This document shows, piece after piece, positions 23,953 through 25,661 of a stretch of 64,000 nt of DNA; position 1 is the stretch's first letter, and the number at the start of each line of letters is the position of its first letter. The position numbers and the translations under genes were made by a program. The notes under the pieces were generated by a model. That model worked only from the letters and a program-made list of their open reading frames with translations, was not told where the DNA came from and searched no databases. Origin of the DNA: Shigella phage SP18; the sequence record GQ981382; one strand, written 5' to 3'.

Positions 23953-24300
23953 TTTGATAATTGTTTTATAGGTCACTTCAGCTGTGTAGAAGTTTTTGGC
24001 TTTCATTACAATAGCTTCACCCTTTGGATTCGCCTCAATCCATTCTCTGGCACGTTTATGTGCTTCCAGTTCAGTAAGCAAACCAGAGCGTTGACAGCCA
24101 CGGTCTTGTGTACCAGCTTCACTTAAGAAAGCGACTAGATAAATTGCGTCGTCATACGGTTTAGCAGGTGGGATGTACACCGGAGGACTCGGTGGGACAT
24201 ACGCAGCAGGATGATGACCCGGAATTTCATTGTATGGACCAGGCGCGGCATAAGATGCTCCACGTGGTGTAGTAAACGTGTGATTGTATCTATCGTTCAT
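23950..24300 (-). CDS. hypothetical proline-rich protein
   Basis: 116 aa ORF; N-terminal half Pro/Tyr rich. Confidence 0.5.
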   Translation of the reverse strand: MNDRYNHTFTTPRGASYAAPGPYNEIPGHHPAAYVPPSPPVYIPPAKPYDDAIYLVAFLSEAGTQDRGCQRSGLLTELEAHKRAREWIEANPKGEAIVMKAKNFYTAEVTYKTIIK

Positions 24301-24312
24301 AATATTTTCCTA

Positions 24313-24339
24313 GAAAAAAGGGACTCCGAAGAGTCCCTG
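24313..24339 (-). terminator. terminator hairpin (AGGGACTCTTCGGAGTCCCT) plus T6
   Basis: Perfect stem-loop with T-run on the minus strand, downstream of the small basic ORF. Confidence 0.7.
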
Positions 24340-24342
24340 AAC

Positions 24343-24504
24343 TTATGCTTTCGGCTTACCAAAGCAAGCTGCATCGGCACGCAATACCGCACGAGCACGA
24401 GCCTGAAGTTTATCAGTTACCTGATTGATTCGCTTGTTGGACGCACGCTTGTAACCAGCGCGTTTGGAGGAGCCATCAACAACTTTAACTTCTTTCTTAG
24501 CCAT
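24343..24504 (-). CDS. small basic protein (~53 aa), 30.9-like position
   Basis: Hand-translated MAKKEVKVVDGSSKRAGYKRASNKRINQ...; below the track cutoff; weak Shine-Dalgarno; coordinates approximate. Confidence 0.4.
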   Translation of the reverse strand: MAKKEVKVVDGSSKRAGYKRASNKRINQVTDKLQARARAVLRADAACFGKPKA

Positions 24505-24901
24505 ATTAAATTCTCTTTAAAATAGAATGCAGGACTTATTGGCATTGCCTGCGCAAGCCCTCGAAGGGAACATTAGGTTTCGGATATTTAACGACAGGAT
24601 AACCATAAACCTCGTCATCATACCTTATAGCTCTTATCTGTTGCACACCGTTAGCTTAAAGGTTCCGGGTTCGATTTCTCGAGGATAAGATATATACTGA
24701 TGGATATATAGGCCTTGAGGCGTACTCCCGATTGGCCATCACCTCGGGGTAGCATGCACTTGCCGCTATAAGAATAACATTCAAGAGGTACACCATAAAA
24801 TTGCCGAGGTCTTAAAACTATAATGATTCGCAAATCATTAATCAGACAATTCGACGGCTCCTCGATTTTAGCTCACACTAAGGCAGTGAATCTCCAATAA
24901 A

Positions 24902-25156
24902 TTACTTCAGAGTTACGACAAAATGGCGAACAGCTTTACGGGCAGCAGATGCCAGCGGCTTAGCAAATTTCAGTTCATCTTTTGCTTCGAGCACTGCACG
25001 AAGGTCGGTTTGAATCGGGTTAAGATGTTTGAAATACTGCAGAATTTCCAGTGCTTCGGCTTCAACATCAATAGATGCGCCGTAGTTTTCGTGACCGTTA
25101 TTCCATGCAGTGCGTTGCAGTTCAAGAGCGTGTTGTAATTGTTTGTTTAAAGACAT
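24902..25156 (-). CDS. rIII: rIII lysis inhibition accessory protein
   Basis: MSLNKQLQHALELQRTAWNNGHENYGASIDVEAEALEIL... matches T4 rIII from the internal ATG (about 84 aa). Confidence 0.8.
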   Translation of the reverse strand: MSLNKQLQHALELQRTAWNNGHENYGASIDVEAEALEILQYFKHLNPIQTDLRAVLEAKDELKFAKPLASAARKAVRHFVVTLK

Positions 25157-25313
25157 TTTAGAAGCCTCAATATGAGGTGAATATTTGGTGGACACGTTCT
25201 TCTGAATTTCACTTCCTTTCGGCAAGTCTCTCAGTTGTAGTCCACCGTTTAGGATTCTCCGGTTAACTAACTGGTCCGGCAGCCAATCCATATTATTATT
25301 TATAACGCTAATT

Positions 25314-25661
25314 TTACTTATAAAGACAAGGAACAGCTTTATAATGACAGGTCACAAATTTCTGCTTAACTTCTTTAGCCTGCTTAAGTCCCAGAGCAAC
25401 CAGAGGATGTGGAACGTTTGCAATCTTGCCAACCGGAAGAGGAGTCAAATCACCCACTTCACAGAAACCTTCGGGAACATCCGGACCAACCGAAAATACT
25501 TCGCACATCTCTGGGATTTCACCCTGATGGAGTTTTCCGATAACGATACCTGATGCCGTAGTTTCTTCATCACCAGCTTGCTTTGGCTCAGAAACCAAAA
25601 TAATATATTCACCTACTGCTTTAATTGGTAATTCCATATTTAATCCATGTTGTTTGGTCAT
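25314..25661 (-). CDS. 31: co-chaperonin gp31 (GroES-like)
   Basis: [22 protein letters not shown]...[20 protein letters not shown]...[30 protein letters not shown] matches T4 gp31; start could be 25661 or 25637. Confidence 0.9.

Follow-up and report, generated by a model that had tools for sequence, protein, structure and literature searches.

What is encoded between the genes rIII and 30.9 of Shigella phage SP18, where 397 nucleotides (nt) separate two reading frames? The question was raised by an earlier note on a stretch of 64,000 nt of this phage (GQ981382; the whole stretch is called the window, and all positions are window coordinates), which described the gap at 24505–24901 as non-coding and pointed to three plus-strand motifs in it: GGGTTCGATTTC at 24667–24678, taken to resemble the T-arm of a transfer RNA (tRNA), an inverted repeat TAATGATT-cgca-AATCATTA at 24821–24840, and a hairpin CCCTCGAAGGG at 24558–24568. 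All three motifs were found at these places, and the gap is real and non-coding, bounded by the rIII stop codon (24902) and the start codon of the 30.9-like open reading frame (ORF) (24504). The analysis revealed that it almost certainly carries a genuine structured RNA of about 149 nt on the minus strand, here designated element A, which is set among smaller RNA hairpins and to which no known RNA family could be assigned.

The ORF list of the window contains a 60-aa ORF on the minus strand of the gap (24651–24833), which the earlier note considered not protein-like, and we arrived at the same view of it from the portion that lies in element A. In each of the 25 variants of element A (24626–24772, which holds two thirds of this ORF), no frame on either strand was free of stops, the variable columns were distributed 24/28/27 by codon position with no three-base periodicity, and the relatives differ by insertions and deletions (indels) of 1, 2, 5 and 7 nt, which break the frame. 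This ORF was consequently rejected as a gene.

The fold of element A and its covariation

The components of the proposed fold, in which element A was located at 24626–24772 by the covariance model R1 with 177 bits, are as follows.

24624–24772, minus strand (5′ end at 24772): element A, about 149 nt, with a four-way junction, helices P1 to P7 and a P3–P4 kissing loop
24765–24772 with 24624–24631, minus strand: closing helix P1, CUUAUAGC paired with GCUAUAAG
24711–24764, minus strand: P2–P3 arm, with P2 formed by GGC (24762–24764) and GCC (24711–24713), J2/3 being AAGUGCAUGC and J3/2 being CGCCUCAAG
24723–24751, minus strand: P3 hairpin with a bulged A
24736–24741 with 24698–24703, minus strand: kissing contact of 6 bp, UGAUGG of the P3 loop with the whole P4 hexaloop CCAUCA
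24691–24710, minus strand: P4 hairpin UAUAUAU-CCAUCA-GUAUAUA, 7 bp with a closing U.G pair
24632–24690, minus strand: P5 arm, with P5 formed by UCUUAUC (24684–24690) and GAUAAGA (24632–24638)
24671–24682, minus strand: P6 hairpin UCGA-GAAA-UCGA
24645–24670, minus strand: P7, ACCCG paired with CGG-U-GU, with the 15-nt loop GAACCUUUAAGCUAA
24639–24644, minus strand: J7/5, the invariant GCAACA

The helices P1, P2, P4 and P5 meet in a flush four-way junction with no unpaired linkers, P2 leads into P3 through a conserved internal loop (10 + 9 nt), and the P5 arm encloses P6 and P7, which form a three-way junction, together with J7/5. Approximately 60 positions of element A are invariant, many of them unpaired, and the P7 stretch GCUAA(C/U)GGUGUGCAACAGAU was the same in every copy.

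The evidence for this fold comes from compensatory change. The first alignments contained the divergent copies of PG7, KEN22, Serratia 4S, EnC07, EcS1 and fHe-Yen9-01, and compensatory changes were found among them when they were read as minus-strand RNA; RNAalifold recovered seven helices from 21 distinct copies and again from 37. With the structure fixed from RNAalifold, 40 pairs were scored. In the MAFFT alignment of 24 distinct sequences, 98.2% of the cells were paired and two-sided changes occurred at 19 of the 40 pairs, and the model-based alignment gave 98.5% and 21 of 40, respectively, with at least one compensated pair in each helix. Controls with slid partners ranged from 25% to 44% of cells paired, and none of 500 shuffles reached the values observed in the MAFFT alignment. 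The comparison with related phages that the earlier note had proposed thus yielded both conservation, in about 1000 records, and compensatory substitutions.

The individual helices vary to different extents. Two-sided changes were observed at four of the five counted pairs of P1 (AGC/GCU, AAC/GUU, UAC/GUA, CAC/GUG and UGC/GCA) and at seven of eight pairs of P3, while in P2 most sequences have G-G-C/G-C-C and phage fHe-Yen9-01 has G-G-U/A-C-C. Three pairs of P4 changed on both sides, with the closing pair being U.G in 22 of 25 sequences, and P5 appears as CUUAUC/GAUAAG, UUCAUC/GAUGAG or UCUAUC/GAUAGA. The P6 stem takes the forms UCGA/UCGA, CCGA/UCGG, CUGA/UCAG, CAGA/UCUG and UAGA/UCUA with the loops GAAA, GUAA, UAAA or UAAU (GUAA was seen in CUGA(GUAA)UCAG), and P7 shows one compensatory change, ACCCA/UGGUGU, in fHe-Yen9-01. 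From these alignments, element A is predicted to fold on its own, with P1 covarying and insulating the fold.

A search of the unpaired columns for Watson-Crick covariation singled out the P3 loop and the P4 loop alone. This kissing contact is Watson-Crick in 150 of 150 cells over 25 distinct sequences, covaries at three positions, and exists in four states (CGAUGG/CCAUCG, UGAUGG/CCAUCA, CUAUGG/CCAUAG and CAAUGA/UCAUUG); it was matched by none of 5000 shuffles. Six further records, taken from Marfavirus, Moonvirus, Kanagawavirus and Karamvirus, served as a hold-out set; every one agreed with both the fold and the kissing contact, and one of them, Kosakonia phage 305, added a new compensated G-C pair in P4. 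RNAalifold also returned an alternative in which P3 is extended locally by 3 bp (GGY/GCC, with the P3 loop at 24732–24743). Since two bases of the kissing contact are used by this extension, the two are mutually exclusive, and the extension could represent an alternative conformer. Pseudoknot pairing of J3/2 with the 5′ part of the P3 loop was also considered, and was rejected as sterically implausible and inconsistent in its complementarity.

The fold belongs to the minus-strand RNA, because its U.G pairs would become A.C mismatches if the opposite strand were read and because it carries GNRA-type and UNCG-type loops; the genes, the sense promoter matches and the terminator of the locus all lie on the minus strand as well. 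A small structured RNA was among the candidates of the earlier note, and it is this part that covariation backs, while the strand and the reading of the motif do not stand: GGGTTCGATTTC is the reverse complement of GAAAUCGAACCC, which consists of the P6 tetraloop, the 3′ half of P6 and the start of P7, so that the P6 hairpin, reverse-complemented, makes up most of the supposed T-arm. By itself the T-loop-like word is not beyond chance, whereas the gap as a whole clearly is, in both its conservation and its compensatory substitutions.

The same evidence bears on the other candidates of that note, a DNA element for replication or packaging (a recombination site may be added here) and the remnant of a tRNA or an intron. 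That the non-coding island is large and AT-rich, with inverted repeats and a plus-strand T-loop-like word, would suit them, as would a copy of modules of this gap inside a tRNA cluster of phi92-like phages (described below). However, the pairing is strand-specific and includes G.U pairs, GNRA and UNCG loops, like the kissing loop, are features of RNA, and the helices are maintained by compensatory changes, unlike decay. ARAGORN found no tRNA, the sense strand has no T-loop, and Rfam gave no tRNA, transfer-messenger RNA (tmRNA) or group I or II intron match, with element A lying within a non-coding RNA. Both ideas are exceedingly improbable and have for the most part been refuted already.

Several points qualify this evidence. 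Folding of the single sequence is unremarkable, with z-scores of −1.6 (minus strand) and −0.95 (plus strand), and the proposed fold has −35.6 kcal/mol against −41.5 for the minimum free energy structure, so energy alone would have missed element A. The aligned copies are close relatives (effective sequence number 1.09), many pairs never vary, the shuffle controls take no account of phylogeny, and some of the covarying states may have been spread by recombination instead of originating independently. The kissing contact, finally, might be intermolecular or intramolecular, the covariation being the same for both.

Distribution of element A and the modules around it

The gap matched 997 phage records, which without exception belong to T4-like phages of Enterobacterales, and it is 95–96% identical to Tequatrovirus genomes in which the flanking genes are only about 86% identical. 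A core of about 135 nt (24631–24765) is 92–96% identical in Klebsiella, Enterobacter, Citrobacter and Raoultella phages of other genera, and the identity of element A ranges from 84% to 100% in all but the two most divergent relatives, compared with 63–90% for gp31, rIII and 30.9. Judged by these identities, element A is under strong selection and is more conserved than the genes that flank it.

The core was detected in about 409 phage records from at least 10 T4-like genera, always between rIII and 30.9, though its spacing differs: across genera, element A begins 13 to 129 nt past the rIII stop (13 to 20 nt in Karamvirus and Kagamiyamavirus) and is separated from the 30.9 AUG by about 80 to 155 nt. 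T4 has no element A; its gap is 244 bp long, and the alignment shows a clean indel of about 150 bp. The site, which lies between GAATGT and GGTATGATG, is occupied by element A here, by another element, termed B, elsewhere, and is empty in T4, where the junction reads GAATGT|GA|ATGATG. Carriers of element B include Gaprivervirus-like relatives with an rIII 99% identical to that of the window.

Element B is a hairpin of about 50 nt containing CUAUCACGCGUCAGAAAAAGGUUAUCUGUCUAAGUCGUGGU, located at 1878–1931 in locus L022, 1745–1789 in L029 and 1819–1869 in L039, and present also in L024, L025–L027, L030, L032 and L040. Its inner stem is compensated (CAGA/UCUG to CAGC/GCUG), and no Rfam family matched it.

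A range scan with an exact 19-nt invariant pattern gave 20 loci in viral contigs, of which 19 are real, and 15 loci in metagenome contigs, of which 14 are real and all on T4-like contigs, while no match was obtained in 185,579 bacterial and archaeal species represented by one genome each. Two exact-pattern matches, L060 and L076, lie inside coding sequence and were dismissed as chance. The covariance model found no copy in more distant T4-like rIII loci (L091, L094–L096) or in gaps lacking the element, and no second copy in the window; likewise, a trans-target search found no second window site for the complement of the invariant 20-mer. On this distribution, element A is regarded as phage-specific, optional and cassette-like.

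The remainder of the gap is made up of further hairpins, two of which are those seen by the earlier note; both are real RNA hairpins, located in separate modules that flank element A.

24785–24863, minus strand: module C, an irregular hairpin of about 79 nt with the base GAGG...CCUC, from RNAalifold and pair counts on 20 sequences
24592–24617, minus strand: hairpin D1, UGAC-G-AGG...CCU-GUCG, with the loop motif GGUUAUCC
24558–24568, minus strand: hairpin CCCUUCGAGGG in the 30.9 leader, the one seen by the earlier note
24529–24552, minus strand: hairpin GCAGG...CCUGC in the 30.9 leader

The tip of module C is the 8-bp inverted repeat at 24821–24840, which reads UAAUGAUU-UGCG-AAUCAUUA on the RNA strand, and compensatory changes were observed at four pairs of the module, such as UAUCGAUU-UACG-AAUCGGUA in L040. 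Compensated variants of D1 are UGGC../..GCCG and UGUGG../..CCACG, and GCAGG/CCUGC is replaced by CUGG/CCAG in L041 and L044, which is also compensatory. The hairpin at 24558–24568 is kept, as CCCUUYGAGGG, in all genera including T4, with its G-C pairs invariant. The flanking modules are therefore RNA hairpins, most of them with compensatory changes. As D1 is downstream of element A in Tequatrovirus and Gaprivervirus and upstream of it in Jiaodavirus (the window compared with L007, L008 and L066), the modules have been shuffled between genera, and the comparison indicates that the rIII–30.9 leader is a modular, horizontally exchanged RNA locus.

Other observations concern these modules. The base of module C (24860–24863) contains a conserved GAGGAG; the T4 endoribonuclease RegB cleaves at the motif GGAG. 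A motif GUWCCCUUYGAGGRCUUG comes immediately after the rIII stop codon in other genera (L037, L039 and L054). The phi92-like myoviruses, which are unrelated to T4, contain a copy about 95% identical to the T4-type rIII–30.9 gap, with modules C and D and no cassette (L052 1290–1637, also L053 and L097; at about 53.5 kb in Escherichia phage phi92), inside a cluster of 12 tRNAs. In this circularly permuted copy, the Shine-Dalgarno sequence and ATG of 30.9 run in frame into roughly the last 27 codons of rIII, which makes a 28-aa ORF that bears the annotation gp113 "lysis inhibition accessory protein". A direct repeat of 13 bp, TTTATTGGAGATT, flanks the insert, and the arrangement suggests a transfer via a circular or tandem intermediate.

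A gap built as a string of hairpins, most of them compensated, raises the possibility that element A is a passive stability element, a compact fold behind rIII that would block 3′-to-5′ exonucleases or RNase E scanning and so shield the rIII or 30.9 segments of the mRNA, with modules C and D acting likewise. Its position 13 to 20 nt past the rIII stop in Karamvirus and Kagamiyamavirus would suit such a barrier. A barrier, however, needs stable helices only, and leaves unexplained the invariant stretch of 20 nt in single-stranded and junction regions, the covarying kissing loop, and the near-identity across genera, so we regard this explanation as very unlikely.

Probable transcription of the gap and comparison with known RNAs

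The window comes from a T4-like phage, with the Escherichia phages P479, 212 and VR26 (Gaprivervirus-like) as top matches, and its gene order is as in T4, all on the minus strand: cd, 31.2, 31.1, gene 31, rIII, the gap and the 30.9 homologue. The features around the gap are listed below.

25695, sense strand: MotA-type middle-promoter match upstream of gene 31, a consensus match only
25314–25661, minus strand: gene 31
25297–25304, minus strand: late-promoter consensus match TATAAATA just upstream of rIII, from regular-expression and consensus scans, a consensus match only
24902–25156, minus strand: rIII, lysis-inhibition accessory protein, 84 aa (phrog_1457, E = 4.7e-42; synteny with T4)
24511–24518, minus strand: AAAGAGAA, the Shine-Dalgarno sequence of 30.9
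24343–24504, minus strand: 30.9-like gene, 53 aa, very basic, of unknown function (phrog_1427, E = 2.9e-26)
24319–24338, minus strand: intrinsic-terminator-like hairpin with a U-run, downstream of 30.9

The mechanical ORF of rIII spans 24902–25291 (129 aa), while homology and a GAGG Shine-Dalgarno sequence place the true start at 25156 (84 aa), and either start codon has the late-promoter match at 25304 upstream of it.

Neither regular-expression nor consensus scans found a promoter-like site on the sense strand within 24505–24901, the single weak promoter-like match in the gap (24774–24801) being on the antisense strand, and no terminator-like site was found there, the sole one being that at 24319–24338 after 30.9. 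Since the gap has no promoter-like site of its own, the promoter matches lie upstream and the terminator follows 30.9, element A is probably made within the rIII–30.9 message, of which we infer the gap to be an intercistronic part.

Automated annotations place three to five overlapping "hypothetical proteins" of 30–70 aa in this gap, as in L002 (Pinarejo, 1531–2037) and L006 (KEN22, 1391–1753), and in RAST-type records the gap is labelled "1,4-alpha-glucan branching enzyme". The small ORFs annotated here by some GenBank records appear to be artefacts over structured RNA.

The tRNA and Rfam scans that the earlier note had suggested were run with ARAGORN and Rfam 15, and returned neither a tRNA nor a family. 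ARAGORN found no tRNA or tmRNA genes in the whole 64-kb window, where no Rfam family reached its gathering score either; with permissive filters, none of the 4227 Rfam 15 models matched within 24505–24901 at E ≤ 10 (24200–25200 was scanned), and an E-value scan of the related gaps of six other phages gave no match. A tRNA or decayed tRNA was therefore set aside, given the zero count of ARAGORN, the antisense position of the T-loop word and the lack of an Rfam tRNA match. Element A does share with tRNAs a set of four helices round a junction with a closing stem (P1/P2/P4/P5), but its arms are 20 to 67 nt long, there are no linker bases, and its loop contact joins arms 2 and 3 and not the D and T positions. 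Known tmRNA, intron, riboswitch, ribozyme and small RNA families were discarded because no Rfam match was obtained, and Rfam supports neither a resemblance to SAM-I nor one to tmRNA PK1. Short words in common with the E. coli M1 RNA (GUGCAACAGA, GAUGGCC, CAAGGCC and GAACCCGG) led to a trial of RNase P RNA, which failed, the local alignment score to rnpB being 22, below the shuffled mean of 23.6, so that these words are put down to chance; blastn found no match to the element in E. coli genomes.

Phage RNAs of similar size were also compared. The T4 annotation contains the small stable RNAs rnaC (species 1, 139 nt) and rnaD (species 2, 119 nt), for which we know of no function. Like element A, these are phage-encoded RNAs of about 120–140 nt in T-even genomes that come from longer transcripts. 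They differ in being sited in the tRNA cluster, with rnaC ending in a tRNA-like T-arm, whereas element A, a predicted RNA, lies between rIII and 30.9. Homology was rejected, as model R1, run with filters off on the tRNA/rnaC/rnaD region, gave a best score of 5.2 bits (E = 1.3) to a match elsewhere. The packaging RNA (pRNA) of the phi29 family is a phage RNA of similar size with covarying loop-loop complementarity, and its loop-loop contact has been proved intermolecular. There is no homology to it, however, and T4-type packaging is RNA-free; as T4 lacks element A, the element cannot be essential for packaging. The PeSL cassettes (PMC2839356, PMC4122927) are likewise short non-coding intergenic modules of T4-like phages that are gained, lost and shuffled. 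According to the title of PMC4122927, PeSLs are composite conserved promoter-terminator motifs. In element A, neither a promoter-like nor a terminator-like site occurs, and there is instead a complex covarying fold; a PeSL would need a terminator-like stem-loop and an early sigma-70 promoter, neither of which occurs on the sense strand in the gap, and this assignment was rejected.

The junction itself invites a comparison with ribozymes. Hairpin and twister-sister ribozymes have a flush, perfectly paired four-way junction, conserved internal loops in adjacent arms and a loop-loop contact, and they are patchy in mobile and viral DNA. Element A likewise combines a flush four-way junction, conserved internal loops and a loop-loop contact, and its invariant unpaired bases, its intercistronic position and its patchy, cassette-like distribution, which is common for small phage ribozymes, would agree with a self-cleaving ribozyme or RNA-processing module that parts the rIII and 30.9 halves of the message. 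Against this, it is about twice the size of those ribozymes, 149 nt being large for a self-cleaver, it gave no covariance-model match to them nor to any Rfam 15 ribozyme even at E ≤ 10 with permissive filters, and cleavage is hypothetical. We consider such a module quite unlikely.

In the literature, as covered by full-text searches with sequence strings and topics, which older subscription papers on the T4 31–rIII–30 region lay beyond, this RNA is not described. Taken with the comparisons above, element A is, as judged from its sequence, an undescribed structured RNA family of T4-like phages.

A possible role for element A

The architecture of element A resembles that of riboswitch aptamers, such as the purine and lysine aptamers, in its P1-closed junction, covarying loop-loop pairs, invariant junction nucleotides and position in a 5′ leader. 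It might accordingly be asked whether it is a cis-acting leader of 30.9, either riboswitch-like or a protein operator, that binds a metabolite or a protein (possibly the small, highly basic 30.9 protein itself) and alters the translation or stability of 30.9. A conserved, covarying aptamer-like fold, as a riboswitch needs, is present, 30.9 invariably follows element A on one strand without an intervening promoter-like site, the multi-helix junction with its loop-loop contact is typical of riboswitches, and the P3 extension that competes with the kissing contact could serve as a switch. What is lacking is a conserved expression platform that overlaps P1: the sequence after P1 differs between genera, the spacing to the gene is not fixed, and the spacer of about 80–155 nt holds differing hairpins. 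No riboswitch family or other Rfam model matched, and in T4 and many relatives 30.9 is expressed from the same leader without element A. A cis leader is thus unlikely.

We favor the reading that element A is a self-contained accessory RNA module that binds a partner, and give it a probability of roughly 0.4. It is preferred over a cis riboswitch because the fold is insulated by P1, its spacing and neighbours are variable, and the T4 30.9 leader does without it. Under this proposal, the module would be carried on the rIII–30.9 transcript and would either persist in that message or be cut out of it, and its rigid tertiary fold would bind a specific partner, which might be a small molecule or a protein of host or phage. 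It would be dispensable in laboratory hosts, as T4 lacks it, and could benefit the phage in some hosts, for instance by serving as a decoy or sponge; put otherwise, it may act as an accessory non-coding RNA or a ribonucleoprotein scaffold, possibly a decoy. The small RNAs rnaC and rnaD of T4 offer a precedent. What counts against this proposal is that the element invariably precedes 30.9 within one predicted transcript, an arrangement that fits a cis role too; T4, the source of the transcriptomes, is without element A.

More tentatively, and with some doubt, element A may found a new functional class of phage RNA with a definite biochemical activity. It might be an aptamer for a ligand or a protein, directed at a host defence or regulator as decoy or sponge, or else a ribozyme of a new kind. 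The rIII–30.9 leader of T4-like phages would carry it as a cassette open to exchange, beside elements B, C and D, which also move, even into the unrelated phi92-like phages.

Among large lytic phages, the T4-like ones have been studied best, and phage therapy makes wide use of them; element A was probably overlooked in them since the reference phage T4 does not carry it. In hundreds of GenBank records the locus is blank or filled with spurious small ORFs, whose annotation would improve. A complex fold with near-invariant unpaired bases that is nevertheless optional points to a specific biochemical function in some hosts, and element A offers a concrete candidate, easy to test, for a new function of non-coding RNA in phages.

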